Positions 12,355-41,083 are shown, numbered from the whole stretch's first letter. The stretch: DNA of 51,688 bases, filler included, from Jimgerdemannia flammicorona (GCA_003990765.1; 2 parts of 2 records of this genome joined end to end with filler, not necessarily neighbours in it), one strand, 5' to 3'. Translations and numbers: made by a program. Notes: a model not told the origin generated them from the letters alone.

Positions 12355-13464
12355 ATGACTACCGAGATCTATACCTATATCTGCGCTGACATTTGGAATG
12401 CCATTGTCAACTGAGCCACACCCCCTCTGCCCCTCATGAATATCTATAGCCTAGCACCCCTCTACTTTGTGGAAGCCCAATGGAACACTCTGAACATGCT
12501 TAGCAAGGCCCACCGAATCGGACAAATCTCAAGCTACTACCAGATCAGCCACCTCCTGGAAGACATGGTCGAACACCACCATGATACAGACATTACCGAG
12601 ATGTCTCAACACCAGAAGCTCATCACCTGCAAACATCGAGAACTCTTCTACGAGTATAGTACCATTATTCCCTGCCTCCGAGTTACTACTAGCAAAATGG
12701 TTGCTACTCTGTCCTATGGTCAAATCAATGACATGATACAAGAACTCAACCAGAAGTACTTCGAGTACATTGAAACTACAGACAGAACCTTCCCACACCC
12801 CAATGATCACATCCTGCAAATGCCCCAAGTTGGATATGCCATGAAGGACATCTACAATATAATCCACTTCGATGAAGACAAAGCAGAAGACAATGATCTC
12901 TCTGATACTGACATGACCTCTAGCCAAGGATCTCTGCCAACCCTGATCACACTGCCAACCTTGCCAATGAACTTACAACAATTCATAACAGCATATGAGA
13001 CTTATTGAGACAATGATCACTGGCATGAATACCAACCAGCATTCATTCCCGATTACTTCAACTACAATGAAGAGACTGGAGAACATAATCTGTACCTTCA
13101 GACAACCCTCAAGATTGAACCAACCACTCCACCACCTGAATATGAGTGACATAAACCACAGCCACCAGCTTACTACAACCCTGTGACTCATAGTACTATA
13201 ACCTACAGAAGATATGCAGACAGCAAATCCAATGAAAGTGAAGATGATGCACCCCTCCTTTGCCCACCAACACCATATCCAGCATATGAGACAGACGATG
13301 CTATTCTGTGGGATGGTGATGAAGTTCCAATGTATTATTACCTCAGCGAACAAGGAGAAGTAATCTGTGAACCACTCTTCCTAGATGACTACTTTATCAG
13401 AGATGATGCAATTGATGGTAATATCATCGAGGACTACTCAGATAGCACCCAAACCCATAAATAG
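12355..13464 (+). pseudogene. LTR (U3)-encoded ORF of family A, 369 aa unknown protein; copy in LTR 1
   Basis: ATG 12355 to TAG 13464; ORF-track pieces 12436-13008 and 13183-13464 are in the same frame; internal stops are sense codons in other LTR copies. Confidence 0.75.
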
Positions 13465-13641
13465 CCTAGCAGTCATAGTATAGTTAGATTAGCCTTGTAT
13501 GACGTAACTGTGAACTGACTCAGCAGTCAGACAATCTCTTGATATATCAGATCACACTTGTACTATGTGACTGCATTCTGACTCAGCAAAGCACTTAGTG
13601 CTACATCTATATCTAGCATAGTCCAGATAGCCCCTCACTAG

Positions 13642-13770
13642 TATAAATACCCCTTCCCCCAGACCTCAGAATCTCAGACTCAAATATACAAGAACATTCC
13701 TGAATACTTCCCCATAATATCCTCTTACACAACTACTCCTAGTATAGCAATATCATGAATAGTGAATAAA
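13642..13770 (+). promoter_or_regulatory. Family A LTR TATA box (TATAAATA 13642-13649) and poly(A) signal (AATAAA 13765-13770)
   Basis: Both motifs conserved in all three full LTRs, in U3-R order. Confidence 0.6.
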
Positions 13771-14129
13771 CCTATTCGAATAACCCACAAACCACTCTTA
13801 AGTAAATCCACTCCCCATTAGGTCTACTCCTAACCCCATTACGAAATTTCCTAATTGGGTATTGTTTGCAGTGATACGCCAATTCAACTAAGCTAGTCTT
13901 AGGTTCTTGAACTTTCTGAAATACAGAAAATCCTGAACATCCAGAACTAGTCCAAAAAAGGACTTTGGTTGAGACATCAACCTGATCTTAAAATCAATAA
14001 GCATAGAGGATGTACTCTATATGAAATTGAGCTTGACCATAAAGAAAACAGTCTTCCAGAATATCCAGAACTTCCAGAAACTCTTCTAGAACTACATAAC
14101 GGTTACCCTAAAAAAGCAACCCTCTTACA

Positions 14130-14435: not shown

Positions 14436-16466
14436 TGTAAGCACACAACCTTCAAGCCACTGAAATCACACGTGACCTCTGAACAAATCTGGAAATCACC
14501 TGCTCGATCACAAAGCTGAGTCAAACCGAAGTCACAGCACACAAAGCTGAGTCAATACAAAGTTACAAAAATACAAAGTTTATACAAATGGAATCTTACC
14601 AATCAGGACCAAATGCATATATACCAAGTACTGAGATGCATCGAATCAGAGAACCAAAACAAATAATAACCACAACTTCCAAACATACAAACATGACCAC
14701 CAAGATCTATAACTATATCTATGCTGACATTTGGAATACTATTGTCAACCGAGCTATACCCCCTCTGCCCCTCATGAATATCCATAGTCTAGTACCCCTC
14801 TACTTTGTGGAAGCCTGATGGAATGCCCTGAACATGCTTAGCAAGGCCCACTGAATCGGACAAATCTCAAGCTACTACCAGATTGGCAGCCTCCTGGAAG
14901 ACATGATCGAACACCACTATGATACAGACATTATCCAGATGTCTCAACACCAGAAGCTCATTGCCTGTAAACATCGAGAACTCTTCTATGAGTACAGTAC
15001 CATTATTCCCTGCCTCTGAGTTACTACCAGCGAAATGGTCGCTACTCTATCCTATGGCCAAATCAATGACATGATACAAGAACTCAACCAGAAGTACCTC
15101 GAGTATGTCAAAACCACAGACAGAACCTTCCCACACCCCAATGATCATATCCTGCAAATGCCCCAAGTCGGATACACCATAAAGGATATCTACAATATAA
15201 TCCACTTCAATGAAGATAAAGCAGAAGACAATGATCTCTCTGATGCTGAGATGACCTCTAGCCAAGGATCTCTGCCAACCTTGATCACTCCACCAACCTT
15301 GCCGATGAACTTACAATAGTTCATAACTGTATACAAGACTTATTGGGACAATGACCACTGGCATGAATACCAATCTGCATTTACCCCTGATTACTTCAAC
15401 TACAATGAAGAGACCAGAGAACACAACCTGTACCTTCAGACAACCCTCAAGATCGAACCAACCACTCCACCACCTGAGTATGAGCGATATGAATCACAGC
15501 TGCCAGCTTACTACAATCCTGCAACTCATAGTGCTGTAACCTATAGAAGGTATGCAGATAGCAAATCCAATGAAAGCAAAGACAATATACCCATCCTTTG
15601 TCCACCAACACCTTATTCAGCCTATGAGACAGACAATGCTATCCTGTGGGACAGAGATGAAGTTCCAATATATTACTACCTCAGTGAACAAGGAGAAGTA
15701 ATCTGCAAACCACTCTTCCTAGATGACTACTTCATCAGAGATGATATCATTGATGGTGATGTCATTGAGAAATATCCAGACAGTACCTAAACTCATAAAT
15801 AGCCTAGCAGTCATAGTATAGTTAGATTAGCTTTATACAACATGACTGTGAACTGACTCAGCAGTCAGATGATCTCTTGATATGTCAGATCACACTTGTA
15901 CTACATAACTGCATTCCAACTCAGCAAGGCACTTAGTGCTACATCCATATCTAGCATAGTTCAGATAGCCCCTCACTAGTATAAATACCCTCTCCCCCAG
16001 ACCTCAGAATCTCAGACTCGAACACACAAGAACATTCCTAAATACTTCTCCACAATATCCCTTCACACAACTACTTCTAGTATAGCAATATCATAAATAG
16101 CAAATAAACCTATTCAATAACCCACAAACTACTCTTAAGTAAATCCACCCTCTGTTAGGTCCCACTCCTAACCCTGTCATGAAATTTCCTAATTGGGTAT
16201 TGTCTGCAGCAATATGCCAATACAACTAAGCTGGTCTTAGTTTCTTAAACTTCTTGAAATATAGAAACTCCTGAACATCCAGAACTAGTCTGAAAAAGGA
16301 CTTTGGTTGAGATGTCAACCCGATCTTGAAATCAATAAGTGTAGAGGATGTACTCTATACAAAATTGATCTTGACCATAAGAAAATGGTCTTCCAGAATA
16401 TCCAGAACTTCCAGAAAACCCTTCCAGAACTACGTAATGGTTACTATAAAAAGCAACCCTCTTACA
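14436..16466 (+). repeat. Family A 5' LTR of copy 2 (2031 bp)
   Basis: TGTAAG...CTTACA, preceded by TSD, followed by PBS. Confidence 0.95.
14693..15802 (+). pseudogene. LTR (U3)-encoded ORF of family A; copy in 5' LTR of copy 2
   Basis: Same 1110-nt span as 12355-13464; an upstream in-frame ATG exists at 14588 in this copy only. Confidence 0.72.
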
Positions 16467-16469
16467 ACT

Positions 16470-16491
16470 TGGTAGTAGTGGTTTACAATCC
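16470..16491 (+). promoter_or_regulatory. Primer-binding site, probably initiator tRNA-Met
   Basis: TGGTAG(C/T)AG 3 nt after the 5' LTR; copy 1 retains GTAGCAG; TGGTAGCAG complements the 3' end of a common eukaryotic tRNAi-Met type. Confidence 0.65.
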
Positions 16492-19400
16492 AATTCCACT
16501 TCAAGACACTTTCTCACCCCGCTACAAACCCTTCCGAGAATTCCTATAAGTTAGTATAAAGCCCAACCTCTGAACTGGAATTTATCCTGAACTATCTGAC
16601 AATCTGGAGAGAATTGAACCTGATATACAAGGACAATTTGATCTCCACACTTGCAATAAGTGGGATAAACTTCATTCAAAGAAAGAAGTACTCCAGTTAA
16701 ACCAGCAAATAGGTGAAACCCTATTCACCGAACTCCTTGCACTACACCCAGCAAGTCAAGACAAAGAAGGTCTTATTGAAGCCTTCTTTACTCTTCTCAA
16801 TAAGAGTTTTGTCAGCTCCATAAATCTGAGTGACCTAGGATAACCAGCAGCAGTCTTTCTAGCCTTATTTCCTCACAAAGCCCAAGCCTCTATAGCCAAG
16901 TGGCTCAACTCTACCGATTTCCACCATACCAGGACTAAGACCGCATTATACTACCAATTCCAGAACAGCAAGGCCCACTATATTCTTAATGAAGAAGCAA
17001 GAGAAACTCTTCATCAACTACCTGACCCCAAACCTGAAGCAGGCCCTGCTATAGCTCTACCTGAATCTGAAACCAATACCGAACCTAAACTTGACTTTGA
17101 ATTAAGTCCATCTGAAATCAGATATACAACTGATTCTGTCTACTTTGATACTGAGCAAACCCAATTACACAGGGACCAAACTGAAGAAAAGGAGGAGTAT
17201 CTTAGTGAATTCGATCCCAGATATACCACCAAAGGAGAAGTACCTCCATCAGGACAGAATATACCTATACAGCAACAAACAGTTATCTATCAAGCCCTCA
17301 CTTCAGACCTACAACTACTACTCCAGCAACTTACACAGACCCAAAGAACCCCATCACACTCTGCACCAGTACCTCAAGTAGTACCAGTAACACCACTACC
17401 AGCAGTCCAACTGCCTCCAGTAAACAATATAGTGAACCAATAGATTCTAGACCTTACAGCCCAAGTAGCCATAATGGCAGCAACCATTACTGCCTTAGCT
17501 GAACAGACCCAACCTACCAAAAATCTGAGCCTACCTACCTTCAATGGTACTGCACAAGAAGTCCAAAGCTTTATTAGTATAGTTGACACCAACTTCGAAG
17601 TCAATCAAAGGACCAATGAGCGAGTTGCCAACTATGTCCTGACAAACAATCAAGACCACACTCTGGAACAACTCTTTGCTATGACTACAGCCTATGTCCA
17701 CTGAGTTGTTATATTCTTCTGAGGACCTGCTGAAGAATGGTGGCGAACCCTTTCTGAAAAACCCCTCACATAGGATATCCGACCTGCAGTAGTTGCTCAG
17801 AATGTAGCAAACAATGCCCCAGGATATGGAGTCCACCCTGCAGTCCCTGGGCTCAAACAACTCATGATTGCTCAATACTGCAGTGAAACCATGATTGCTG
17901 AATCTCGAGTAAAACTCCGCAATCTCAAATTTTATATATATGGCAAAGAAGAATTTGAAACCTTCTGTACAAAACTCAAGTCACTCCTGAACACTGTTGG
18001 CCTAGGATACATTGCCAATGATGAAGCATGAAATGGTACAAGAGCAGACCATTTATTCAATGCCCTGCCTGAATGGCTTACTAGAAAAATCCGAGAACAA
18101 GGCTGCTCAATTGGTTGTGATCACCAACAATGGTACCTGGCAAGAATCAAGACTATGGTCAAGTGAATCCTAACAGCTAGACCAATTCTGCCCTGAAGAC
18201 AATTCAACAACAAGGAAAAAACTTGGACCAAGAAAGAAGAATCCAAGCATGAAGCATCCCGAGCTCCCTCCACATCTACCTCTTGGACATGAACCCACCC
18301 AGCCAAGTACCTTCAAGAAACTTACTGAAGGCAAAAGAAATGAACTTCGAAGAAGTAGAGCATGCTTCTATTGCTAAAAGACAGGACATATGGCCAGTGC
18401 CTACCCTAACTGGAAACCCCAAACAGCAACAAGAGCAACTGTTACCACTCTGCACCATCTCAACAACCTGACTACCAGAACACTAGACTTTGTCAAGTTA
18501 AGACAAACTGCTAAGGCCCCAACCAAAGGAAGTCAAAAAGCAGCTGGATATGACCTATATGCAGCCGAAGAAGCTACAGTTTCCAACCGAGAAGTCAAAT
18601 AAGTTTATACAGGAATCAGTATCCAAATCTCTGAAGGACATGTTGGAAGAATATACTGTCACAGCAGCCTAGCACTGAAAGGACTCTCAGTAGAAGGAGG
18701 AGTCATTGATGAAGATTATACAGGCGAAATCATTGTCCTCATTCGGAACTACAGTTGGACATCCTTCAAGATCCCTATTGGTTTCTGCATTGCCCAAATT
18801 CTATTCAAAAAAATTGAGTCAACTCTGACAGTCAAGAAAGTCCCTGAACTACTGCCCACCATCTGAGGATCCAAAGGATTTGGCTCATTAAAAAAGGCCC
18901 CAGCCCAACCTACTATGAGCAAAGAAGAACAATTCTATAAGAAGATAGAAGATGGATATGTACCAAGTAGCTGATGCCTACATGGCATTGGAATATACTC
19001 TTCCCGAATAATTGATGATTACTTCTCTTATATCAATGAACTGGCACAAAGAAGAACCAACAAAAGGAAAGCCCCTACAACCGAAATCACCACCATTGGG
19101 TCAGACAAACTGCTTACACTTAAAGCTTTTGTCAACCGAGCACCTGTCAAGATTATGATAGACAGTAGTACCTCAGGCAACTTCATCAATGAGGAAACAG
19201 CCAACAGACTCAAGATTTTCACCTCTCTGATATAACAAACTCAAGCAGTTGCTACAGCTGATGGAATCTCACATATTATTAGCAAAGAAGTCCGCAATCT
19301 ACTCTTCCGAATTAGTGACTATCAAGTATATGTTACCCTCCAGATCGTACCACTCCCTGACAATGAAATCATCCTTAGAACTCCATGGTTGAAACAAGAG

Positions 19401-22400
19401 AACCCCATGATCGATTGGGTAAACCATTCTCTGACCATCAAGAAAGGATGCCACAACTTCAAACTGCAAGGCAAAAAGGACTCACTTAATTCTAGTGACC
19501 CTGAACCAAAGATCACTCACATCAACAAGCTACAACTCAAGAAATTGGCCAAGAAATGCCCTCTCTTCGCTATCTCCATCTGTCTATCCAAAGGAGAACC
19601 TGAGAACTCTGAAGAAGACTTTTCTAAAGTTGACAGCCATGTCAGACCACTACTCTAGAAATTTCGAGACATATTCCCAAAGAAGCTTCTAAAAGGTCTA
19701 TCTCCTAAATGAGCAGTAGACCATGCCATCAAAACTATCCCAGATGCCAAACCAGCCTTCAAGTCAATCTACCACATGTCTCCAAGAGAAATTGATGCAC
19801 TCAAGAAAGAAATTGATGAACTCCTAGAACAAGGATTCATCAGATCCAGCATATCACCCTATGGTGCACCAGTTCTCTTTGTTGTCAAAAAAGCAGGAGA
19901 CCTGTAAATGTGCATTGATTACTGTGACCTCAATGAACAGACCATCAAGAACTATTGCCCACTTCTGAGGATCGATGAAATATTCGATAGACTTACAAAC
20001 CTATAATTCATGAGCTCTTTTGACTTGTGAAATGGTTACTGGCAAATTGCTATGAAAGAAGAAGACATCTACAAGACAGCCTTCTGAACTCACTATGAAC
20101 ACTTTGAGTTTCTGATTATGCCCTTTTGCTTAACTAATGCCCCAGCAATCTTTCAGACACTGATGAATACCATTCTGCATCTATACCTGGACAAATTTGT
20201 TATTGTCTATATTGATAACATCCTAGTCTTCAGCAAAACCCTGGAGGAACATCTTGAATATCTTAAACTAGTACTATTGAAACTCCGAGAAAACTGACTC
20301 TTTGCAAAACTCAGTAAGTGCGAATTTCTCCTAAAAGAAATTCAATTCCTTGGACACATTGTCACTCCAAATAGAATCAAAGTGAACTCCAGCAAAATCT
20401 CTGCAATCAAAGATTGGCCCAGACCCAAGAAGCTGAAAGACCTCCAGTCATTCCTGGGATTAGCAAACTATTATAGGTGATTTGTTGCCAACTTTGCTAA
20501 AATTGCTACTGCCCTCACCCAAATGACCAAACACAGTAAGAAACAAGAACAACCCTGGACCATGAAACAAGAGAAAGACTTCAACAATCTTGTAAATTGG
20601 GGACTCGAGCAAGATACCACCTTTCAAGCACTAAAAGATGCTCTGATAACTACTCCAGTACTTCAGGTAGCAAATCTTACCTTACCATATGAAGTCACTA
20701 CTGATGCCTCTGACCTAGCTCTTGGAGCAGTGCTCATGCAAGAAGGACACCCTGTGGCCTATTACTCTTGCAAGTTCAATGATGCTGAAATCAACTATAC
20801 AACTCATGAGAAGGAAATGCTAGCCATCATAGACACTCTGATCAAATGGCGACCATACCTAGAAGGAGCATACTTCACTGTATTGACTGACCACAAGTCA
20901 TTAGTCAACATCAAGACCCAGGCTACCCTTTCTTGAAAGCAAGCTAGATGGATGAAAGTCCTCACCAACTTTGACTATAAAATCCAGTACCACCCTGGCA
21001 AGGAAAATATTGTTGCCAATGCAATCTCCAGACCACCAATTGAAGAGGTTATCCAAACTCTCACCTTGGTTACAAACTCCATCATGGAACAAATTATCAC
21101 AGTATGTGCCGATGATAAGGAAGCTCAAGCACTATGAGAAATCCTGAACAGTAATGATGCTGACAAGCATATACAGTATCACCAATACCAACTGAAGGAC
21201 AATGCTATCTACTACAAAGACAGACTGTATGTCCCAAACAACCAAGATCTCCGAAGGACTATCCTATTCGAATGTCATGATGCACCTATAGCTGGACATT
21301 TAGAATTCGATAAATGTTATGAAGTCATCTCCCAAAACTTCTATTGGCCCTGCATGACAGATTAGCTTAAAACCTACATCACTTCCTGTGATGCCTGCCA
21401 ATGAAACAAGTCCTCAACACTAGCAAAACCCAGCTTACTCCACCCTATCCCAGTACCATCTATGAATTGGGAACAAATCTCTATGGACTTTATTGTACAA
21501 CTACCCTGAACCAAGAATGGAAAAGATGTAATTGTTGTCTTTGTGGACTATCTCAGCAAACAAGCCCACTTTGTACTAACTACTACTACTGTAATAGCAC
21601 CAGATATAGCCACACTCTTGTTTGACAATATCTTCTGCTATCATGGTCTTCCTAAGATCATTATTAGTAACTGAGATCTAAAATTCACCAGCCATTTTTG
21701 GAAAGCCCTCCATGCACACCTTGGAACAAAACTTGCACTATCCACAGCCTTTCACCCAGAAACTGATGGCCAAACTGAAAGAATGAACTGAACTCTGGAA
21801 TAAATACTAAGGAACTATGTTTCCTATAGATAAGATGATTGGTATGAACACCTCACCACAGTTGAGTTTGCCTATAACAATAGCATACAAGCCTCTCTTG
21901 GAATGACCCCATTCTTTGCCAACACTGGACAAAACCCAAACACCTCTTTGACACTTATCCAAACTACTGAAGAACTCTCCACAGTCGAAGCTGTTGAAGA
22001 ATTCTTACTTCGAATGTGCAACCTAAGCCAGATTGCTATTGAGAATTTATCACAAGCTCAAGAACAACAGTCACAGTATGTTAACCAACACCACTGAGAA
22101 GAAACCTTTGATATTGGAGAAAAAGTCCTACTAGACATCAGAGGATACTGAGTTGACAACCTCAAGCATAGACCATCTACAAAGCTGAACAGCAAGTTCA
22201 TTAGACCATTTGAAGTCATTGCATAAGTCTCTCCAACCTCCTACAAACTGGCGCTACCAGATACTATTAAGATCCACCCAGTCTTTAATGTTCAATATCT
22301 CAAGCGATACAATGAGAATGATGATGAGCTATTTCCAAACCAGACCACCAAACCATCTGCACCTATCATTATTAATGATCAAGAAGAATACGAAGTTGAA

Positions 22401-22550
22401 CAAATCCTCAACAAATATGGCAATAAGAGCCACCCTGAGTACCTTGTCAAATGGAAAGGTTATCTGATTCACGATACAATCTGGGAACCCAAGACCAATC
22501 TCCAGAATACTACTGACCTAGTTCAGGAATATGATTCCTTGAACAACTAG
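16472..22550 (+). pseudogene. gag-pol: Family A gag-dut-pol polyprotein, copy 2 (stops, 11-bp deletion near 18288, RT YIDD->YIDN)
   Basis: Colinear with 5761-11850 (offset 10711, then 10700 after the deletion). Confidence 0.92.
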
Positions 22551-22763
22551 AACCAAATACTCCACACCTATCCATACATACTATATACTTTCCTCCTGAA
22601 CATTATAATTATTGCAAAACTGAACCAAGAACTCAGTAAAACAAGACAAGAATACAGACCCTCTGGAGAAATGGCAAAACTGAAAGCAAGCCTATTCTCT
22701 CTGTACCACTGAACAAAATTTGAAAGCCCCGACAAGGATGTCAAAAGCTAAGAAGGGGAGAGT

Positions 22764-24801
22764 TGTAAGCACACAACCTCCAAGCCACTGAAATCACACG
22801 CGACCTCTGAACAAATCTGGAAATCACCTGCTCGATCATGAAGCTGAGTCAAACCGAAGTCACAGCGCATAAAGCTGAGTCAATATAAAGTCACAAAAAC
22901 ACAAAGTTTACACAAATAGAATCTTACCAATCAGGACCAAATGTATATATACTGAGCACCAAGATGCATCGAATCAGAGAACCAAAACAAACAACAAACA
23001 ACAACCACAACTTCCAAACACACAAACATGACCACTGAGATCTATAACCATATCCGTACTGACATTTGGAATGCCATTATCAACCGAGCTACACCCCCTC
23101 TACCTCTCATGAATATCTATAGTCTAGCACTCCTCTACTTTGTGAAAACCTGATGGAATGCCCTGAACATGCTTAGCGAGGCCCACCAAATTGGACAAAT
23201 CTCAAGCTACTACCAGATCAGCCATCTTTTGGAAGATATGGTCAAACACCACCATGATACAGACATTACCCAGATGTCTCAACACCAGAAGCTCATTGCC
23301 CGTAAACATCGAGAACTCTTCTATGAGTACAGTACCATTATTTCCCACCTCCGAGTTACTACCAGCGAAATGATCACTACTCTGTCCTATGGCCAAATCG
23401 ATGACATGATACAAAAACTCAACCAGAAGTACCTCAAGTATGTTGAAACCACAGACAGAACCTTCCCACACCCCAATGATCACATTCTGCAAATGCCCCA
23501 AGTCAGATATGTCATGAAGGACATCTATGATATAATCCACTTCGATGAAGACGAAGCAGAAGACAATGATCCCTCTGACGCCGAGATGACCTCTAGCCAA
23601 GAATCTCTGCCAATCTTGATCACTCTGCCAACCTTGCTGATGAACTTACAACAGTTCATAACTACATACAAGACTTATTAGGACAATAACCACTGGCACA
23701 AATACCAACCTGCATTCACCCCTGATTACTTCAACTATAATGAAGAGACTGGAGAACACAACCTATACCTCCAGACAACCCTCAAGATTGAACCAACCAC
23801 TCTACCACCTGAGTACGAGTGACATGAACCACAGCCGCCAGCTTACTACAATCCTGCAACTCATAGTGCTATAACCTATAGAAGGTATGCAGACAGCGAA
23901 TCCAATAAAAGTGAAGACAATATACCCATCCTTTGTCCACCAACACCTTATCCAGCCTATAAGACAGATGATGCTATCCTGTGGGATGGAGATGAAGTCC
24001 CAATATATTACTACCTCAGTAAACAAGGAGAAGTAATCCGCAAACCACTCTTCCTGGATGACTACTTCATCAGAGATAATATCATCAATGGTGATGTCAT
24101 CGAGGACTACCCAGACAGTACCTAAACCCATAAATAGCCTAGCAGTCATAGTATAGTTAGATTAGCTTTATATGACATGACTGTGAACTGACTCAGCAGT
24201 CAGACGATCTCTTGATATGTCAGATCACACTTATACTACATGACTGTATTCCAACTCAGCAAGGCACTTAGTGCTATATCTATATCTAGCATAGTCCAGA
24301 TAGCCCCTCACTAGTATAAATACCCCCTCTCCCAGACCTCAGAATCTCAGACTCGAACACACAAGAATATTCCTGAATACTTCCCCACAATATCCCTTTA
24401 CACAACTACTTCTAGTATAGCAATATCATGAATAGCAAATAAACCTATTTAATAACCCACAAACTATTCTTAAGTAAATCCACCCCCTGTTAGGTCCCAC
24501 TCCTAACCCTGTCATGAAATTTCCTAATTGGGTATTGTCTGCAGCAATATACCAATTCAACTAAGCTAGTCTTAGTTTCTTAAACTTCCTGAAATATGGA
24601 AACTCCTGAACATCCAGAACTAGTCCGAAAAAGGACTTTGGTTGTGACATCAACCCAATCTTGAAATCAATAAGTGTAGAGGATGTACTCCATACGAAAT
24701 TGATCTTGACCATAAGAAAACGATCTTTCAGAATATCCAGAACTTCTAGAAAACTCTTCCAGAACTACATAATGGTTACCATAAAAAGCAACCCTCTTAC
24801 A
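22764..24801 (+). repeat. Family A 3' LTR of copy 2 (2038 bp)
   Basis: After PPT AAGAAGGGGAGAG; TGTAAG...CTTACA; followed by TSD. Confidence 0.95.
23028..24137 (+). pseudogene. LTR (U3)-encoded ORF of family A; copy in 3' LTR of copy 2
   Basis: ATG 23028 to TAG 24137, again 1110 nt; includes ORF-track 23169-23681. Confidence 0.72.
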
Positions 24802-25553
24802 TAGCCAGTGACTGACCAGCCCCACCCAAATGGCCAAAGCCTACCCTAATATCAGCCATTCCTTCCCCACCCCCCCCTCCAGTCTACCCCTTAAATCCTC
24901 CCAACACCCCTGCACATCAGCTCTCCTGCACATGACTCCCAGATGATCTCCAATATTCTGCCAAAAGGTACTAAGTACCTTAAACTCCCCTAGCCAATGT
25001 TCAGGTGTCTGTATATATCTCCCTTCCTGCCCCACATTATAACACTCTTCATAGTCAAAGCAGCCTCCCTCAATAAGGTAACTAGAGTGGAAGTTGAGCA
25101 TGACATTTTGCCTCAGCACGTGCCACCAGACCACCCAGTACTTCAGCGGCAACCACCTCCTCACTTTGGCACTCTAGGCCCATATGCTATGCCAGTCCCA
25201 CTCCTCACCGATTCCTACACCCTACCAACTGCTAGGCCACAGATCCTGGCCTGATCTCTGCTGGCATTTGATCCCATCACCAATGTTAAACTCAAGTAAG
25301 GGAATACCACCAAGTAACACTCAGTTCCATCACCACATTGCTGGGTCCCAAGCCTCCTCCCCTTCATTTCTCTACCACCTAATTCCAATGCAGTGTACTT
25401 CCTCTGCCACTCTCCACCAGAAGCCTTTGTACCATAATTGTCTAGAGTTCTGAAGGCCTACAAGCACCAGGAGATTACCCATCGAACTCCTTGGAGAGGA
25501 CCTCATCTCCCAGACCTTCTGCAGTAGGGGAACCCTCAGATATACACCATGGT
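24802..25553 (-). mobile_element. Second L1/Tx1 LINE copy, right piece (ORF2 C-terminal region)
   Basis: ORF 24841-25164 (NVMLNFHS..LIEGG.FD.EECYNVGQ.G..IQ.PEHWLGE) matches 296-541. Confidence 0.85.
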
Positions 25554-25797
25554 TGTAAGAGGGTTACTTTTTAGGGTAACCGTTACGTAGTTCTAAAAGG
25601 GTTTTCTGGAAGTTCTGGATATTCTGGAAGACTGTTTTCTTATGGTCAAGATCAATTTCATATGGAGTATGTCCTCTACGCTTATTGATTTCAAGATCGG
25701 GTTGACGTCTCAACCAAAGTCCTTTTCCGGACTAGTTCTGGATGTTCAGGATTCTCCGTATTTCAGGAAGTTCAAGAAACTAAGACCAGCTTAGTTG
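25554..25797 (-). repeat. Third family A insertion: inverted LTR 3' end, cut by assembly gap
   Basis: Reverse complement of the LTR U5 end (TGTAAGAGGGTT...); retains more CpG than the other copies. Confidence 0.92.
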
Positions 25798-25897
25798 NNN
25801 NNNNNNNNNNNNNNNNNNNNNNNNNNNNNNNNNNNNNNNNNTTAATTAATTAANNNNNNNNNNNNNNNNNNNNNNNNNNNNNNNNNNNNNNNNNNNN
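25798..25897. other. Assembly gap (44 N + TTAATTAATTAA linker + 44 N)
   Basis: N runs around a linker with stops in all six frames; technical. Confidence 0.95.
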
Positions 25898-28466: not shown

Positions 28467-28921
28467 TTCATTTGTAGTGAGTCTTTGAGCTATTTTGGGA
28501 TTGGTGGATCTTATTGATTGCTGTTACTGTGGTTTCTTGATTCTTCTTTTATATTCCTCAAGATGCTTGTATCTTGGTCACAATGACTTACAGTTGGTCA
28601 TCATTACTCATCTTATATGCTGTATAATCTTCTTGTACTCCAATCTGATGGCTTGTAAGGAAAGACTGTCTCCTGTACTAATTTCATCATTCTGTAGTCA
28701 CCATTATAATATATATTTGTTAGCTTTAAGAATATAATAGTCAGAATAATGATCTAGTATATAAACTATATAAAAGATTATATAATATCACATAAGTAGC
28801 CTATTTATAAAATAGAAAAATCAATAAGTCTCTCTTTGATAATAGCTTTATATATATCCTATATAGTAGATAACTGTATATATATTCAATACTATATTAA
28901 TAGAATTACATTTATAGGTAT

Positions 28922-30377: not shown

Positions 30378-31830
30378 GTATATAGGTAAATTATACAATT
30401 ATTATAGTAATGAAAAATAAGCTTAACAGAGTTATAGAAGTTCTATATAAGGAATTCAAGATAACTAATATAGATAATATATTATTTATTAAATATAACA
30501 AAAGAATATATATATATTATATATCTCTTATAGTTAATCTATATTTAAAGCATCTCTTATTAAATGAATATGAGCAAATATAAGCTAGTAAATACTTTTA
30601 TAAAACTTCTATAAAGTTAAAATAGACTGATACTATACTAGAGGTAAATAATAATATTCTTTATTAGTGAGCAGTCAGTTCTCTCATATACTATAAATAT
30701 AGTAGTACAGTACTCATTTTGCTTTAATATTTTATATTAGAGTACATACTATTTAAAGAATTTTTAAATATATTAAAGATATAATATACTATTTACTCAC
30801 CCTTAGCAGATTGAGCAGAATTAATAACAATAAGAATAAGAACAATAGCATATAACTATCTAGTATATATAATACTAATTAGACTAACAACTTAGATAAT
30901 TACTAATATATAACTGAGTACTTCTTTAAATTAAATGCCAAAGGAATTATACCTTAGCAAATACATATATAGAGCTTAGTAGTAATATTATCTATTTAAG
31001 TAGAGTATTAGTATTATCCACAGTAATAAAGAAAGTTATTTGGCTATACTAGCTATTAAAAGATCTTATTTTTTATCAAGAGTACTCTATGCTTATTCAT
31101 CAGAATGATCAGTCTATGATTATAATGATCAAGAATACTATTCATTATAGTATAATCAAACATATTGATATATAATATTATTATTTAAGAGAAATATAGA
31201 GAATAGATCTATATACTTGAAATTTATCTCTATAGAGTATATTATTATAAATTTACTTACTAAAGCTCTTCTGAAATCTAAATTTAAATAATGTACAAAA
31301 GAAATGAGTCTTATAGTAAAATATTATCAGCAATAAAACTATATACTAACAATGAATAATTATAGAATATTTTATAATAAAAAGAAAGTAGAAAAATAAT
31401 ATATTTTTATTCATCTTTCTCTCTTTTTAAACATTGAATTATATTATGATTATTTATTAGATTTTCTTTTTTTTCTTCTATATTTGAGTTTTTCTACTAT
31501 TAGGATCTTCTATATCTTTTATTTTTATAATATTTTATTATACTTTAAGAATAGGTAGATAGTATTCTTATAGTATATTCATAGTTATTTTGTAGTTATT
31601 GTTTAGTTATATTATATTTCTATTTATATTACATCCTTATATATTATCTCTTTGAGTAGGAGTATTGAAGTTCTCATTAGTATATATCTTAATAATATGG
31701 CTTAGAAAAATGATTATTTATAACTATATCATCTTTGAGTTATATTACTTGATATATAAATATATGAATAATTAATAAATATAATATACTCTTCTACTAT
31801 ACTCTATACTCCTAACTAAGTTACAATATA
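30378..31830 (+). mobile_element. Highly decayed Ty1/Copia 3' part (RT/RNase H remnant, PPT, short LTR)
   Basis: Residual KHIDI (~31158) and LLTKAL (~31252) motifs; PPT-like GAGTAGGAG then T(G)TTGA at ~31663. Probably continues left into 28709-28921. Confidence 0.6.
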
Positions 31831-32300
31831 TTATAAAGAGAGGTATTTTTATTCAAGTTACATAGATTATATATTTCATATATTACTAATGAATGCTATA
31901 AAACTAATAGAATAGTATAAGTTACATACTAATATATCAAGTTGTCATATCAATACTCTCACTCAATAAGATATATAATCTAAAAGAATGCAAACTTGAT
32001 TAAAAAAAACCCCCTAATACAATATATATATAAAAAATGAACTACATATATCTTTATATTTAAGAATTTTTTGTAGGTCAAAAATTAGTCTGAAATATAT
32101 CAGAAATATCCAAAAAAAACAATATATATAATTCATATAATATACTTGTAGATAAGAGATGTAACCAATATAGATATAAATATATCATATAGTAAGAGAG
32201 GCCTTTTACAGTCTAAAAAATGGCCCAAAATTATCTAAATATTAATGTACTACTTATAGGATCTATTCCATTAATATATTGCTTGAACTTTGGCTTTGAA
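31830..32300 (-). mobile_element. Decayed Copia 3' end in opposite orientation
   Basis: TCAATACTCTCACTCAA at ~31950-31966 is the reverse complement of the Copia PPT/LTR junction seen at 31651 and 34321. Confidence 0.4.
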
Positions 32301-32429
32301 AGGGCTTTTATAAGTAAAGCAGTGATTATATACTCTATGGAGAAATATTCTAAGTATATAGTATTGTTTTTTACATTATAAATAACATTATATAAACTAT
32401 ATCTATAAGTATAAGTATATTATAACAAC

Positions 32430-34484
32430 TGATGAGCCAGCAAACTATGACAAAGCCATATACTTAAATGATAAAAAGAAGTGAAAAAAGGCTATAAATA
32501 AAGAGTACAGTTTGCTCATTGAGAATAATATCTGGAATATAGTCTCTCTTTTAGTAAATTGATAAGTAATAGGATCCCATTAAGTATATAAAATTAAGCA
32601 TAATAGCAAAGATAGTATAGAGTAGTATAAGGTCTGATTTGTAGTTAAGATGTATTTATTAGGATATATTATAAACTACAATGAGATCTTCTCTCTAGTA
32701 TTCAAGCTTACTTCAATTAGAATACTTCTTATAATTAGAGCCAAATGTAATTAAAAAATCTATCAAATAGATATTAAGACAGTCTTCTTGAATAGTGATA
32801 TACATAGATATAGAGCTATATATCTGTTAATTATAAGAATATAAACTATATAATAATAATCAAAATATGCTCATATATAAATTATATAAAGGTTTCAATA
32901 ATATTAAACAAATGATAAGACTATAGAACTGAAAAATCATAATATATCTCTTAGACAATAGATCTAAGTATCACAAAGCTAATATATATATATATCTAGC
33001 ATATACTAGTACCTAGGAATTTAGGTTGATGATATATATATTCTGATTAAAATAAAAAACAAGATCAATGATATTATAGTAACTATGCCAGAAATTCAAA
33101 ATAATAGATATGGATAATATATTATATCTTCTTGAAATATTAATTATATATAATAAGTATGAATATATTATATATGTATCTATCATAAGCTATATATATT
33201 TAGACTATACTTAAATAATTTAGAATAAGTGAATGCAAACCTATTGGAATATCTATAGAAATATCTGTGAGGCTCAAGAAGTTCAGTAATACTATAGCTA
33301 AAGATAATTACATATTCTCTATTGGTAAGCTGTAGAAACTTGTATATATCTTATACTTGAGATGAGATCTAATATATCATATATAGTTAATAAAGTGATA
33401 CAGTATCCATTCTGTTATAACAATTCACATTAAATAGCAATTAAGTGCATTTTTAGATATATTAAAGATATAGTATACTATATGCTATATTTAAACAACA
33501 ATGGATCAAGCAGGAGTACTATAAAGTTATATAGTATATATATGTGATACCAATTAGATCAGTGATCTGAATGACAGATAGTTTATAACTAGATATGTAT
33601 CTCTTTAAAATTAGTAAAAATTAAGTTATTTTATAGTAAATATATAAGTAATATTCAGTGACAACATCATTTATATAAGTGGTATATTAAGTATTATCTA
33701 TAGTAATAAAGAATGCTATATAGCTTCTGAAACTACTAAAGGAGTTAAGATATAAATAACAGTACTCTATATTACTCTATCAAGATAATCAATCTATAAT
33801 TACTATAGTAAAGAACTCTATAAATTATGCGAGAATGAAATATATTAATATATAATATGATTTTATATAAGAATATGTAAAAAATGATACTCTATATTTA
33901 GAATATACTTCAACAGAGTATATAATAGCAGATTTGATAACTAATGCTCTTCTAAAGATAAAGTTTATCTTATATATATAAGGAATGAAATTTATAAATA
34001 ATTCTATATCAGCAAGTAATAAACAATAATAATAATACAGCAATAATAGAAGTTTTTTGGAGTGCTGAAAAGTCTCCAATTATATCTTATATATATATCT
34101 CTATATTCTTACATATCTTACATACATCTATCAATATTGCTTATATCTTTTCATTTATAAATGAATCTGGATCTATATTACTAATCTTTTACTACATTCT
34201 TGACCTATTTTTATACTTATATAAAAGCAGGAAATTTGGACCTTTTTTGGTCATCTAGATTGCACCCAGTTAGTTATAATTAGTTAGTTCTTTATTTTCA
34301 TATTCTGGAACATATCTCATTGAGTGGGAGTGTTGAAATATCTTAGTTATAGCAACTGAATATGTGGTAGTGCAGCCTGACTATATCATTCTGTAAATAT
34401 TATCAATATATATAAATGCTTATAAGCTAGTATCAATAAACAATTGCTGCTTCTCTCCACCTGTCTTCCAAGTATTCCACAACA
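32430..34484 (+). mobile_element. Decayed Ty1/Copia element: RT-RNase H, PPT and 3' LTR
   Basis: EPANYDKAI, (W)KKAINKEYSLLIENNIW, YKV(R)FVVK, QIDIKTVFLN, VDD, QDNQS, ADLITNAL; PPT GAGTGGGAG (34322-34330). Confidence 0.85.
34331..34484 (+). repeat. Copia 3' LTR (154 bp)
   Basis: TGTTG...CAACA ends with internal TATAAA and AATAAA. Confidence 0.8.
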
Positions 34485-34695
34485 TTAATAAAGTCTGAAA
34501 CTATACATAAATAATAATATAATTATCCCCTATCAATAAGTAGTAAGAAGCCTTACATATCTTATGCTTAGAAAATAACTAGATATCATATATATAGTCA
34601 ACAAAGATACACAGTACTATAACAAAATTAATTAGATAGCAATCAAGTAAATTTACAGATATATTAAAGATATAGTATAATTCATACTCACCCTG
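34485..34695 (+). mobile_element. Further Copia RT fragment
   Basis: Similar to 33330-33490 (GATATATTAAAGATATAGTATA shared). Confidence 0.5.
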
Positions 34696-36421
34696 GTACT
34701 GTTCAGGTTGAAAGACAGTATGGGTAGATTGTTAGGTAGGCCATTTTTCGGGTTCAACGTGCTGCATGGTTGGCTATTTATCAGGGTTTGTAAATTTCAG
34801 AGCCAGCTCCATTGTGTACACGGGTGGTAAGACAGATGACGAATACCATTATCTGAAATTAGGGAAGTTGCGTAAGCCGTGAATTTACGGAAATGTCACG
34901 TAAGGTCACGTGCCCACATATCGAATTGTAATGTGAATCATACATAAAGCAAAGCTAAATAAAAGTCTAAATCTACATAGATTTAATTTTTTTATATTCT
35001 TTTTTCATGACGTTGTACTATACAAAATTTATTGAGGGTTATAGGTTGGGCGCACTGTATAAAGGAGCCCGCAAGTGACATCTAAAATATTCACGTTGTT
35101 GCCATTCGTTTCGCGTTCCACTGGTAAATACCCGACGCATGCCATTTACCTTTAAAAGACGCGAGGCTCGGGGCTCTGTTGAACAGACAATTATAACCTC
35201 TTGTGTCGATCGAAAGGTTGTGGTGTGTTTGCATTTTCGGTACGGTCATCTCCTGAGGTTTCCCATACTTCCCAAATCGCTTTTCGATTGTTTGAATCCC
35301 ATTATATATATTTTTTATTTTCAAACACTTAATCCTTGACCACCCTCGATTGCATTGTCTGTCAAATGGTTGTGAAGTTGAAAACGGATGATAACATCTC
35401 TGTCGTCTGAGAATCTTGGCTAACCCATGGAATTGCCAAATTTGGCGTCTGTACACAGGTCCTGACTCTCACCCGGGAATGCGGATTCAATCCCAATCCC
35501 CGGGTGATTATAAAACCACCGCGGCATTCCTCGAAATGTGCATGGCGTAATGAGAAGAGTGTGTCTCGTTAGGGGCTATTCACATGCCCCCGGAGGCGAA
35601 GCGTTCAAGTTTGTGAACATTATGTTTTAGTTCTTATTATGCGTTGCTTTGTCCGCTCTACATTCTCTAATTATAGAGTCGTATATATACAAAACTATGA
35701 GCCTTTCCCTACTTCTTTACCTACATCGTCATTCCCCATCTAAATCTAATTTCTATAAATTTTGGTTTTGATAACGTGGCAATGCCAATGTGAAGGCGAA
35801 TTTCGGCGACCACATTAAATGTTTTTGTTTAATGTTATTTGATGTTTCATTCTCGAATGGTTTTCACCGGTCTCCCCACTTTTCGCTTCCAAATTTTTTA
35901 TTTGTCTCTTGTAACGCCATTCTCAGCGGGAAACAGCGGTAGGCTCCCTGTCACGTTACATGGCATTCTGTGACCCCGATTATGCAACTAGTTTTTAAAG
36001 TAATTTCGTGTCTTAAAAAAAAAAAAAAAAAAAAAAAGGTGGCGTCTTTCTTGCTGAATCTCGAACCAGTATTTGGTCCTTGTCATAACAAACAATACTC
36101 TATTGGGTCAAGTCAGGTCACATAGGAATGTAAATAACTATTCCATACTTCCGAAAAACTCCGGGAATGGCAGAATTGAGTCTGATAATTGAAGGAAAAT
36201 ATCCGTCGGATCGTGCTCTTAAGGAGCACTGCAATCAATCAATCAACATCATATGAACATAAAATTTTGTCCTATGTGACTATATCTCAGGATTTCCTAT
36301 CCTATTTTTTTATTTTATTTTATTTTTTGTTTTAAAAGGGGCTGCATTTTCCGAGTTCAAATAGAAAAAAAAAAAAAAAAAAAAAAAATTAAAAAACTGA
36401 AAAACCTTAACCCCCCCAATC

Positions 36422-36803
36422 ATGCCTGATCATAACGATTTCAAAGTCGACGACCACGTTCGGTACAAGATACCCAACTCGCCTCAGTCTACAGGTGTAA
36501 TTGCTAAGATTTTGACAGAGGTAAGTATGAAGAGTATTCTCCTTTTCTCAATTATCTGGAAACCATTTTCGCGAAAAGTATCTATAATTCCCACCAGCAT
36601 AATCCGCCCAAATACGTCGTAAGGGACGATGGGACTGGCCTAACATACGGCAAGTGATAGGCTGTTTGATTTTCACGTACTTACATTTGCGCATCATTAT
36701 ATGGCGCTCTATACCCCACACCTTTAAATGTGGTTGGAAATTTGACCAAACCATCTTTATTACCCATTTAGTTGCCGCGCTTGAGGACATCAAGAGGCTC
36801 TGA
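36422..36803 (+). CDS. Small Hva1/DUF2945 Tudor-like domain protein, 60 aa, 3 exons (36422-36520, 36598-36649, 36772-36803)
   Basis: MPDHNDFKVDDHVRYKIPNSPQSTGVIAKILTE/HNPPKYVVRDDGTGLTY/VAALEDIKRL*; intron 1 GTAAGT...CAG, intron 2 GCAAGT...TAG; pattern FKVxDHVRY...GVI..I.T...P.Y....TG fits my recollection of the Hva1_TUDOR family. Confidence 0.72.
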
Positions 36804-38180
36804 TAAGACTGGTTGGGAAAATGTATGCCTGGCTTCCCGCAGTCGACAAAAGGTGTATTTGTAGCACAAATGAATTACTGGGTGGTAGGAATTAAACCAT
36901 TGTTATTTGTGGCAACAACTGATAGATTGAATCGGCATTACATGTGACACTGTAGCTGTTTCCAATATGCGAGAGGTTGTGATTTTACTGGCCGATAACA
37001 TGCTTGCTTCAAAAATAGGACCCATTCCGGTTGAGTGTAAACTTTTTATCCGTCGTTAGTGTAGCGTTTTTATGACGGCAGTCAATAACGTTGGCAATAT
37101 CACTATTTGTGAGGATGCCTTCAAAGTATTTATACTTCAGTTTGATTGATCTTATATATTTAATACGTCCGTTAATACAAGCTGAGGTGTGTTAATGTCG
37201 GTTAGATGCCATCTGAGGGAGTCGCTCCTGCGCGGCGAAGCTCGGCGTTGCGAGAATTCTCCGAAAATTGCATAAATGCAACACATTGCAAAATCAGTCG
37301 TGTGATCGTATTACAAAGAGACATGGTGCTGTCAAGTAAATTGTTGGTGCTAACCAAATGAATGTGTATTACCCAGGCCAGTGCGTAATGCTATGGAATG
37401 TGTACTCTGTGTTGGATAGGTTTATAGGCATTTTCTGTCATGTCATGAAACATGCTGAATTCTAGTTTGATGACCAACTCTTCGGCAAAAGTGTAGCTTA
37501 ATATCCGTACTCTCTTCGGAATGTGCTTTGAAGGATTTAGTTTACTAGGCGAATACAAGCGTTAAGGTAATGTCGAAGGAGAATGGCATAAACATGACCA
37601 TTGGCGAATTGGATATCCGAACAAGGTTCTTGGGTGCTGGTTCGCACGTCCCAATTTACCGGGTCATTATTATATAATCACTACTATTCTTCAAAGTGCT
37701 TCACACTCACTTGCGTTCCGAAAGCCGTGTTGATAGTCCACTCTCGTCACCGACATCGTTTCTTTTACACGCTCCTTCTCCATCTTAATCTTCACACTTC
37801 TTATGCCTTTGATTTCATGTTCGTTTTTCATTTACGGTCAAACCCGTCACCATCAAATATTTCAGCAACTACGTGATCGTCGACTACCATGAAGTTTTTA
37901 TCTCCCTCGTCTGCCTGACGTTCACCTAGTGCTTCCTAAACCTTTTGCTGTCTTACGATATGCCCCCCCTCCCCCTCCCACCCACCAGACCATATTCGTC
38001 CGACTGCAGATGCTGAACGATTTTCAAGTTATATTCCGAATGTTTCGCTTGGGCCACTCATATCACCAAGTCCAATTCTTCATACAACCTCGCACACCTC
38101 GCGCAAGGCTTATATGAAGGGTATATGTTTGTCTCTTTACTATGTCAATTTCGTATTTGTGGCTCTTGTGAGAGTGACGA

Positions 38181-38666
38181 TTGATACAGCACAAAAAAGG
38201 TGCTACGGGGGGTGGGGGAAGGGGGACCCTCATATCGAACTCTACAATTATAACCTACCTATCACACTCTCATATTCCCCAATGGCTATGGAGTACGAGG
38301 TCGAGTGCAAGAAGTAATTCATTGCCCAAGAACAACCTTGCTGACTACAACCTCCGCGCCCGTCGCCAAACGTTCCGGAACGCCATCCGGCAAACTCTAC
38401 ACACGACCTCGCTTACCTCCTTCGCAGACAAGGACGGGGTTCTGCGTCTACCGCTTCGGCCGCCACCGCCATTTTCTCACGTTAGTCTTTATCAATGTTT
38501 ACGAATCCCCGGATGCCCTCCTCAACGTCCATGCCCCGCGTATCTCGACTTCACCCAAATCCGGCCAAGGTTCAATGCCGCTCGCGTCGCCCGCGCAGCA
38601 CAGTATTCGGATGATGGACTCGATGCATTTGCAAAAAACCTTACGAGGCCCCAGCGACGTCTCTAG
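38181..38666 (+). CDS. Possible orphan coding exon (161 codons), start unresolved
   Basis: Longest ORF in the CpG-retaining island, GC-rich; candidate splice sites GTATAT ~38121 and CAG 38189; no recognisable domain. Confidence 0.25.
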   Translation: MIQHKKGATGGGGRGTLISNSTIITYLSHSHIPQWLWSTRSSARSNSLPKNNLADYNLRARRQTFRNAIRQTLHTTSLTSFADKDGVLRLPLRPPPPFSHVSLYQCLRIPGCPPQRPCPAYLDFTQIRPRFNAARVARAAQYSDDGLDAFAKNLTRPQRRL

Positions 38667-40330
38667 GTATTCATATGTTAACAGCTTGTCTGAGGTTAAT
38701 TTTGGGCTCATCAAGCCAGATCCTCTCTTGGGCGAATCCGCTCCCGTGGGTTGAACTACCCAATTAGTAGATTTGAGGAGTCGAAGTATATGGGTCTCGG
38801 TCTTTCGGAAGGTCAGACGAAGGGTTTAGGGAGGAGGTGATAGAAGTGAGGAGAACGTGGGATATAGATAATGGTTTATGGTGTTGAGTTGTTGAAGTCG
38901 ATATATCCTGAGTGGGGTGTCCATTTAATTTGTCCTTTCTTCTCCTTCCTCCTTTATACATGCCGCATAACTTTGTCCACGCACACGCTATCGTTGACCG
39001 ACACATGCTCACCACGAACAATTTATTGGTTTTATTTTAATGTCTAAATTCCCTCTCTCTTGTCGTATCTATCTGTTCCGTTAAGATTTCAATTCTATTT
39101 GTTCGCTGATGCACTGCGCACAATATTTCCGACCGGGATTTAAAAGCACATGTCCTTGTCCATTGATCGTTATGGGTTTTGTGGAAGGGGTAATTAATGA
39201 GGATGGAGGATCCGTGTTGAAGTTCAGCTCATTAGACACTTATACGTTTCCTGATTTAATGATGAATGACATGAGGAAATAGTTAGGAATGGACTGAAGG
39301 AACATTCCAATTATCCCACCGAACACTATTGGTTTAGCCAGCATTACCCGGCGGTGACATGATGGTGAAGAAACTATTCTGAATTTTGGATTCGGTCAGA
39401 TGATACTTTAGGTTCCTATATTCCATGGGAAATTATGTTTCGTGCTTGCTTGGTATGCCTGCCAAATCAATGGAACCAATACCAAATCCATTCATATTCA
39501 TTGGGACTGTATATACGTCCGAGCAGGGAAATAATGGTTTAAAAATCGTAACTAAAGATAAACCAACCACAAGAATTTCATTTTTTTAAAAAAATAAAAT
39601 AAAAAAAAAATAAAAAAAGGGATTAGAGAATGAGTCTTATTAATAAAGGTTGTAGATATTTCTAGAAGATACTATATGATATATAGAACAATATTATATA
39701 CTCTTATAAGTTAATTAAATATATGAAATCGAAATATATAAGTTAATAAATGAATATATAATATAATATAAATATCTTATTTATTTTTCATAAAAACATA
39801 ATAGTCAAATAAAGATATTATAGTATATAATTTGTAATTTTGACATCTTTAAGAAAAATTTAATACATTACTTCACATTTTTAATAATTTAAATTAAATT
39901 TATAGTTAATTTTAAATTAAATTATTCAAAATGAGATAAAATTTATTTAAATTAAATTAAAATTAAAATATTATCTATTTAATTATTTATAACCACTAGT
40001 ACTATTTATAGTAAACTTCAATTTTATTACTTAACTAATATATAGAAGTTTCTTAATAAGCTTTTTTATAATATCTCTTTAATTTATCTTAGTAATTAAT
40101 ATCTTTTTGGTATTTAATTTTCAAATAGCTTCAAATTATAAAAAAAATTCTTTAACTTAAACTTTTTATCTTAACAATTTTTATAAAAATAGATAAATTA
40201 ATTTATAAAAAAAAAAAAAGTTAGAAACATATATTATAAACAATATATACTAAATAGTTTTATAATTATTCAGATTATATCTTTTGAATATCTATAAATT
40301 AATTTATATTAAAAATAGTATTATATATAT

Positions 40331-41083
40331 TGTAATGTAGCAGATGCCTAATCTTGAAAGTATAGCAGATTTCTGTATCTTGAAAACTTGACTTGTTCTG
40401 ACTCTTGCAGAGTTCTTGGAGTGTGAAGTATATCTGCCTACAGACTTACTAGTTCCTTTGCTTTTTCTTTACTTTGAACTATTTCAATCTGAGGTTTATT
40501 TGCTCTAAGATACTGGGTTATTTATATAAGTTTGCTAGCTATAAGGTGGCTATGTTATGAGTCATTTTGCTAATAGCAAAGTATTTACTAATAGTAAAGT
40601 TTTATGACTGCTATTTATGTAGCTATACTATATCAGGACTTGGGTTCAAGTATAGTAATCAAATGTCTAATTCCTCTAATTTATATTCCTAATTCAGATC
40701 AACTATCACAACTTTCTCCTAGATAGATGATTTATTCCTGAGATATCCCATTCACTTGAACTCTCAGACTTCTATAATTTATATCTCTTTATACTATATA
40801 ATTTGTGTTATTATATTCTCCCAATATTATCTCCTAATATATCTGAAGTCTGCTGGGATTACTTCTCAGAGATGAGCTAGAGCTGTTTTATCTTCTTTAA
40901 ACAACTTGTTCACTTATTTGGTGAAAGTAATCTGAGTATGAGAGTGCTAGCATTCTTAGATCCAGTCTTCTTTTCTCATTTCTGGTTGTGAATTCAGTAG
41001 TTACCCAAGCTTGAAGTATTCTTGAAACTCATTTTGGTTCTAGTATATCTTGAAATGTAAAATTTGTGATAAGTGTGTTTACA
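40331..41083 (-). repeat. Family C 3' LTR (753 bp)
   Basis: TGTAA...TTACA termini; TATAAATA (40519-40526) and AATAAA (40495-40500) on minus; only one copy visible, so boundaries are inferred. Confidence 0.6.
40659..40979 (-). pseudogene. LTR (U3)-encoded ORF remnant of family C (~106 aa, 11 internal stops)
   Basis: MRKEDWI*EC*HSHTQITFTK*VNKLFKEDKTALAHL*EVIPADFRYIRR*YWENII...; supported mainly by motif similarity to family A/B LTR proteins. Confidence 0.5.

Follow-up and report, generated by a model that had tools for sequence, protein, structure and literature searches.

Candidate genes in the U3 regions of two Ty3/Gypsy families of Jimgerdemannia flammicorona, without detectable relationship to each other

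Introduction

The locus described here raises the question whether long terminal repeats (LTRs) of Ty3/Gypsy retrotransposons can hold complete protein-coding genes in their U3 part, and whether such genes in different families belong together. The locus is a 51.7-kb window (the whole stretch of DNA that was analysed, 51,688 nucleotides including filler) from Jimgerdemannia flammicorona (GCA_003990765.1). It is a nest of retroelements that are heavily damaged by transitions, and it contains AT-rich blocks. A preliminary description of this DNA had proposed that three Gypsy families, A, B and C, each encode a protein within the LTR and that the three proteins share a motif. Additional open reading frames (ORFs) are known in LTR retrotransposons, and U3 ORFs are known in retroviruses.

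The reading that we favour, with a probability of about two in three, is that family A has one family-specific U3 gene (ORF-A) and family B another (ORF-B), neither being detectably related to the other or to known proteins. The five copies in the window would be dead through C-to-T and G-to-A transitions like those of repeat-induced point mutation (RIP), family C would be without such a gene, and the common motif would be due to chance.

Results

ORF-A in the LTRs of a chromovirus

Three family A LTRs of about 2.04 kb were located on the plus strand by self-BLAST and alignment. One (12063-14129) terminates element A1, which is truncated at its 5' end, and the others are the 5' LTR (14436-16466) and the 3' LTR (22764-24801), preceded by a purine-rich tract, of a complete plus-strand element, A2 (14436-24801). 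All three have TG..CA ends and are 88-91% identical in the alignment, the pair of A2 being 91% identical. The start motif occurs three times in the window, and four matches were reached in 0 of 100 shuffles. A2 has flanking direct repeats, TG..CA termini, a 5-bp target-site duplication (TAGCC), and TATA and poly(A) signals.

The internal region of A2 (16467-22763, plus strand) encodes a zf-CCHC gag, a dUTPase, reverse transcriptase, RNase H, integrase, SH3_Tf2-1 and a chromodomain. The Pfam domain scan of the window, which covered 148 stop-to-stop ORFs of at least 75 aa free of N, gave zf-CCHC, dUTPase, RVT_1, RT_RNaseH, Integrase_H2C2, rve, SH3_Tf2-1 and Chromo on the plus strand of A1 and A2. 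With this domain set and its C-terminal chromodomain, family A is a Ty3/Gypsy chromovirus. The dUTPase domain follows directly after the gag zinc knuckle (7651-8163, E 3.7e-25; 18603-18863, E 5.3e-19). The internal part of A1 was delimited by self-BLAST at 5761-12062 (plus strand). A1 is without a 5' LTR; it resembles A2 from the very start of the internal region onward (5761 and 16472, respectively), where it directly abuts sequence of a long interspersed nuclear element (LINE).

Each of the three LTRs contains ORF-A, of 369 codons, in the sense direction (plus strand). Copy 1 (12355-13464, plus a stop codon) has in-frame TGA at codons 20, 218 and 265. Copy 2 (14693-15802) has five in-frame stops, and copy 3 (23028-24137), which spans the segment 23295-23408 of the proposed motif, has four. 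The three, five and four stops of this frame compare with 15-16 and 35-37 in the other sense frames (15 and 37 in copy 1), and no copy has a frameshift. Eight codon positions hold a stop in at least one copy, and at each of them CGA, CAA, CAG or TGG is found in another copy (CGA or TGG for the three stops of copy 1), so that every stop is one transition away from a sense codon. The ATG is situated 257-293 nt inside the LTR, and the stop codon about 180 nt before TATAAATA; in the A1 LTR, TATAAATA at 13642 and AATAAA at 13765 are both downstream of the ORF. The frame leading from the pol stop to the ATG contains several stops. ORF-A looks like a real sense gene, wholly within U3, protein-coding in appearance and damaged by mutation. 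The earlier reversion of transitions in family A was largely right, as the IP.L segment can be read in two window copies and in an intact database relative, P0014.

Element A (16467-24801) was overlaid by thousands of short contigs with 80-99% identity from four runs (soil metagenomes, 'organism A'), which indicates that the family is highly repeated in those runs. Among the 40 of 1873 differing places listed, most were T>C or A>G changes with the window as reference, which fits a window copy that has itself been mutated. None of the 12 indels listed (29 in total) falls inside ORF-A.

ORF-B in the LTRs of a second family

Two LTRs of family B, about 1.5-1.6 kb long and 80-86% identical, were found on the minus strand. 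Copy B1 (28708-27094; self-BLAST and alignment) is a 5' LTR. Toward lower coordinates it is followed by a primer-binding-like site (TGGTGCC...) and, just below 27090, by a gag-like translation. Copy B2 (30377-28922) is a solo LTR with a 4-bp target-site duplication (ATAC).

ORF-B occupies 28466-27630 in B1 (278 codons plus stop, two in-frame stops) and 30136-29333 in B2 (267 codons plus stop, four in-frame stops), both on the minus strand; the latter spans the segment 29824-29711 of the proposed motif. The other sense frames hold 11-13 and 18-22 stops. There are no frameshifts, and the stops are one transition away from a sense codon. ORF-B begins about 242 nt inside the LTR and ends ahead of its TATAAATA, which together with AATAAA lies downstream of the ORF in both LTRs. 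The gaps between B1 and B2 within ORF-B measure 12, 3, 33 and 9 nt and are all multiples of three, while only three of the eight gaps outside the ORF are (1, 3, 71, 30, 21, 1, 1 and 1 nt).

The LTR architecture previously given for the two families, including target-site duplications of 5 bp in A and 4 bp in B, was recovered. The translations quoted for the motif were also present, and the ORFs of A and B proved to be much longer than the quoted 38 residues.

Relatives in protein databases

Relatives were sought by a word-indexed search of 5.8 billion clustered proteins and by an exhaustive search of 1.84 billion representatives with the family A profile. ORF-A matched P0008, a protein of 247 aa covering residues 115-365 of A with 63-64% identity and no stops, and P0014, an N-terminal piece of 128 aa with 85% identity. 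Three further matches of the family A profile were judged spurious, being internally repetitive proteins aligned in 4-9 short stretches. ORF-B matched P0009, a full-length relative of 271 aa with an uninterrupted frame, as well as P0010-P0013 and P0020; these are 59-70% identical to the window copy. When the DNA of the relatives was sought in metagenome contigs by alignment scans for B and A, 590 and 12 pattern matches were obtained, none of which was a confirmed relative.

Mutation pattern and coding signal

The columns of the three family A LTRs in which two copies agree against one contained 68 C>T changes in CpA and 52 G>A changes in TpG, compared with 15 and 13 in CpG, the polarity of the mutations being set by majority rule only. 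With transitions in CpA and TpG prevailing in this manner, the repeat mutagenesis of family A LTRs is of the RIP type.

Transversions in ORF-A numbered only two between the two LTRs of A2, and 13 and 11 between A1 and these copies. As the A2 pair differs by just two, most of the ORF-A transversions predate the insertion and arose between replicating lineages. Third codon positions took 9 of the 13 and 8 of the 11 (for 9/13 the binomial P at p = 1/3 is about 0.009). The counts are small, and coding selection on the ORFs is rated as likely but short of proof.

Family C and the proposed common motif

A putative 3' LTR of family C (41072-40333, 0.74 kb, minus strand) was found downstream of an integrase-bearing internal region; element C extends over about 41.1-46.5 kb on the minus strand and has an integrase match at 41510-41923. 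It is a single copy: no second one was found in the window by BLASTN, relaxed BLASTN or a search with purines and pyrimidines collapsed. The three sense frames of the C U3 contain 18, 18 and 14 stops per 181 codons, and the 30-codon piece previously quoted for C has two. The hidden Markov models (HMMs) of the A and B families gave no match to the C LTR. Family C therefore appears to carry no such gene, and a U3 sense ORF upstream of TATAAATA/AATAAA, as claimed for three families, can be upheld for A and B, with their long frames and intact relatives, but not for C, with 14-18 stops per frame. The gags of C (45453-46314) and B (26063-26917) are 64-67% identical, but the LTRs are unrelated and that of C is half as long. 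A U3 gene is thus not constant even among related elements.

The proposed motif was compared with shuffled sequences. As encoded, the 38-column register of A and B has 8-10 identities and a BLOSUM62 sum of 7-20. When the best ungapped window of 38 columns was taken from 300 shuffles per pair, at least 10 identities were reached in 40-45% and at least 9 in 93-94%. The registers of C with B and with A have 5 and 6 identities per 30 columns, and all of 200 shuffles gave at least 7. The identities of the motif were thus at or below the level of shuffled sequences.

Searches that allow for more divergence led to the same result. BLASTP of ORF-A against ORF-B gave best E values of 0.09 and 0.95 and did not recover the 38-column register, and the score of the gapped local alignment of A and B was matched by 12-65% of full or block shuffles. 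The HMM of B picked the diagonal of the register in ORF-A, with an E value of 6 and a score of -6.3. The profile-profile comparison by hhalign, which had been suggested as a check, yielded a probability of 0.9% (E 0.064) over 18 columns away from the register; the A and B alignments are shallow (effective number of sequences, Neff, about 1.3-1.5), which limits the sensitivity to very remote homology. The family A profile returned no B member from the 1.84 billion representatives. The motif ascribed to A, B and C is best regarded as a chance alignment, judging from these comparisons. Motif-like matches of this level are easily obtained when short segments are aligned after their transition damage has been reverted by eye.

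Properties of the predicted proteins

The N-terminal part of both proteins is near neutral, and the C-terminal part is strongly acidic and rich in aromatic residues and proline. The acidic tails noted before were present: the last 199 residues of A carry a net charge of -33, and the last 86 of the intact B relative P0009 one of -17. This acidic part is probably disordered, and the N-terminal part is helical in low-confidence models only. The common composition of the tails is a compositional likeness and not evidence of common descent. ORF-A also contains two PPxY-type motifs, PPEY (codons 260-263) and PPAY (270-273), the second being LPAY in copy A2; they were set aside as a feature of ORF-A, since both are missing from the relative P0008.

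A Pfam scan of the five ORF copies (E up to 1) gave nothing for B, and a RAMP match for ORF-A was rejected at 18.1 bits with a cut-off of 27 bits. Both family profiles were without matches among the Protein Data Bank (PDB) sequences at E up to 1. In the ESM Atlas, the top feature score of P0009 (0.83) was within the chance range of the tool, P0008 gave no usable match, and all template modelling scores (TM-scores) were 0.33 or below.

Promoter-like motifs

All family A LTRs contain, close to their 5' end, a short duplicated segment in which two TGAGTCA motifs stand 31 bp apart (12176-12213, 14517-14554 and 22845-22882). TGAGTCA may be read as an AP-1/GCN4-type site. The putative promoter region of ORF-A in the A2 5' LTR (14517-14623, plus strand) comprises two TGAGTCA motifs, CCAAT at 14599 and TATATA at 14618, the last about 70 nt before the ATG. 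This layout was repeated in the third copy (A3), and in A1 the TATATA was interrupted.

In B1, TATAAAAG is found at 28553-28546, 80 nt upstream of the ORF-B ATG, with CCAAT at 28504 in between, and in B2 TATAAAAG is found at 30222-30215; the distance to the ATG is 79-80 nt across the B copies. Promoter-like and poly(A) motifs are kept between the copies of each family.

Neighbouring repeats

The first 5.7 kb of the window (1-5700, minus strand) is a LINE-type non-LTR element with Pfam matches to RVT_1 (973-2083) and Exo_endo_phos (3061-3546). Its plus strand is extremely C-rich, with a GC skew of about -0.35 to -0.5 and a GC content of 51-56%. The segment 210-657 is 69% identical to the flank directly after element A2 (24803-25250), which suggests that the A elements were inserted in LINE-derived sequence. 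An inverted piece of 246 bp from the 3' end of the A LTR, 90-91% identical, is located at 25797-25554 and adjoins two runs of 44 N (25798-25841 and 25854-25897). The A cluster and element B are perhaps separated here by a gap in the assembly or by masked sequence.

Two regions, 30400-34700 and 39000-40330, have a GC content of 19-30% and show self-similarity of low complexity only; they look like repeats degraded to AT-rich sequence by RIP-like mutation. The region 34700-39000 between them (GC 38-49%) contains several ORFs of 108-166 codons on both strands, without a Pfam match.

Discussion

Several points weigh against the reading that ORF-A and ORF-B are genes of their families. Both are known here from sequence alone. 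The relatives form very narrow families, with two true relatives of ORF-A among the 1.84 billion representatives and only six found for ORF-B. All of them are automatic gene calls without informative names, on metagenome contigs of 720-2375 bp. Such relatives show conserved open frames, not proteins or expression, and a protein database can hold only open copies. AlphaFold2 gave a mean predicted local distance difference test (pLDDT) score of 30.2 for A and 35.7 for B with no residue above 50, and the models are unusable; values as low as these would be expected for disordered or for non-natural proteins. ORF-A also has a fairly open frame in antisense, with 5-7 stops. The transversions between B1 and B2 fall 6, 5 and 9 on the three codon positions (9 of 20 on the third) and show no third-position excess. 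The transitions between the two LTRs of A2 fall 53, 18 and 39 on the three positions; since the second position is depleted even within one element, this pattern reflects mutational context, and transition counts per codon position are unusable. Lastly, the putative promoters are assigned from short motifs only.

One rival explanation is that the frames are not functional genes, but are open through composition or recent history in an A/C-rich U3, the database proteins being gene-caller output on other young copies. It would fit the failure to find a known domain, a PDB match or an ESM Atlas neighbour above chance, the very poor structure models, the origin of all relatives from short metagenome contigs and the open antisense frame. 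We nevertheless consider it unlikely. Relatives at 59-70% identity keep uninterrupted frames of up to 271 codons, every gap within the ORF preserves the frame, unlike the gaps outside it, and the pre-insertion transversions of A are concentrated at third positions. The other sense frames hold 3 to 12 times more stops, and two independent families agree in their arrangement, including a TATA element upstream.

The preliminary description had instead suggested an ancient or exchanged accessory module, from which the A and B ORFs, with a remnant in C, would have diverged almost beyond recognition. It is favoured by the fact that one genome has two families with the ORF in the same place (U3, sense, ahead of the core promoter), and by the neutral N-terminal and acidic, aromatic-rich C-terminal parts common to both proteins. 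Three weak patches are also roughly collinear (A 57-68 with B 80-91 in BLASTP, the register at A 89-127, and A 305-322 with B 208-225 in hhalign). Divergence of this kind has a precedent in plants, where accessory ORFs of LTR elements are reported to diverge far faster than pol, ORF0 having about 10% similarity where ORF1 has more than 60% (PMC3485330). Every comparison of A with B, by BLASTP, hhalign, HMM, gapped scores and shuffles, was however non-significant, the family A profile found no B member, the HMMs did not match the C LTR, and the C registers were below the minimum of the shuffled sequences. A common module is hence quite improbable. Still less credit can be given to the idea that pieces of host genes were transduced into U3 and are carried there as ORFs without serving the element. 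U3 is the most plastic part of the LTR. LTR elements are also known to capture additional ORFs, as is reported for bdelloid elements (PMC5408684). Neither the 5.8 billion clustered proteins nor the 1.84 billion representatives yielded a relative outside transposable elements, and there was no Pfam match; this argument is weak, as the host lineage may be poorly sampled. In our reading, ORF-A and ORF-B are two independent U3-borne orphan genes, a variant of the known theme of additional ORFs, and not one gene family.

Among retroviruses, the sag gene of mouse mammary tumour virus (MMTV) is a complete sense ORF that lies inside U3, ahead of the LTR's core promoter. Like ORF-A and ORF-B, this 'LTR ORF' has a few hundred codons and lies in sense in U3; it differs in its host, in the class of element (a betaretrovirus as opposed to a Ty3/Gypsy chromovirus) and presumably in function. 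The Pfam scan of the five copies at E up to 1 did not place ORF-A or ORF-B in the superantigen family.

The additional ORFs (aORFs) of plant elements, such as ORF0 of rice Retrosat2, RIRE3 and RIRE8, are likewise restricted to lineages, of unknown function, fast-evolving and without homologues outside the element family (PMC3485330, PMC7264820). The aORFs described there are internal, lying either in the stretch from the 5' LTR to gag or in that from pol to the 3' LTR. ORF-A and ORF-B, in contrast, do not lie between the two LTRs but wholly in U3, and are therefore duplicated in each element and kept in solo LTRs; their host, moreover, looks fungal. Among fungal elements, the dUTPase-bearing chromoviruses of Postia, Phanerochaete and Tuber resemble element A in combining a chromodomain with a dUTPase (PMC2864245). 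The same text, Novikova et al. 2010, reports fungal chromoviruses with an 'add. ORF' and leaves its position unstated, so that this ORF may or may not sit in the LTR, whereas ORF-A does. A search of the full-text literature, with subscription journals, Repbase/Dfam and the supplements of PMC2864245 outside its reach, turned up no report of a fungal Ty3/Gypsy LTR that holds a complete gene.

If the promoter-like motifs are used, each LTR would be a unit with two promoters. The TATA-like or TATA element with CCAAT, 70-80 nt before the ATG, would drive a short mRNA that passes through the core promoter of the LTR and terminates at the LTR's own AATAAA. The genomic RNA would likewise include the ORF at its 3' end, as with retroviral accessory genes that overlap U3. 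As every retrotransposition places a U3 at both ends, an element would hold the gene twice, and solo LTRs would preserve it. Each LTR, including solo ones such as B2, might then represent a small gene with a promoter, an ORF and the poly(A) signal of the LTR.

Our best guess for the protein, held with low confidence, is a regulatory or adaptor protein serving the element and not an enzyme, for example an acidic protein that activates the LTR promoter, or an antagonist of chromatin or silencing; such a role is favoured because of the acidic tail. The anti-silencing or transactivator role suggested earlier is compatible with the acidic tail of both proteins and is itself speculation. A wider proposal seems doubtful to us: that fungal Ty3/Gypsy elements repeatedly evolved, or share beyond recognition, a self-contained U3 gene with its own promoter, whose acidic-tailed product acts in trans on the LTR promoter or against silencing and RIP and is still expressed from solo LTRs.

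Should the ORFs be expressed, every solo LTR would potentially count as a copy of the gene, and the turnover of LTRs would alter gene dosage. ORF-A and ORF-B would then also offer a testable handle on how these elements cope with repeat-directed mutation and silencing.

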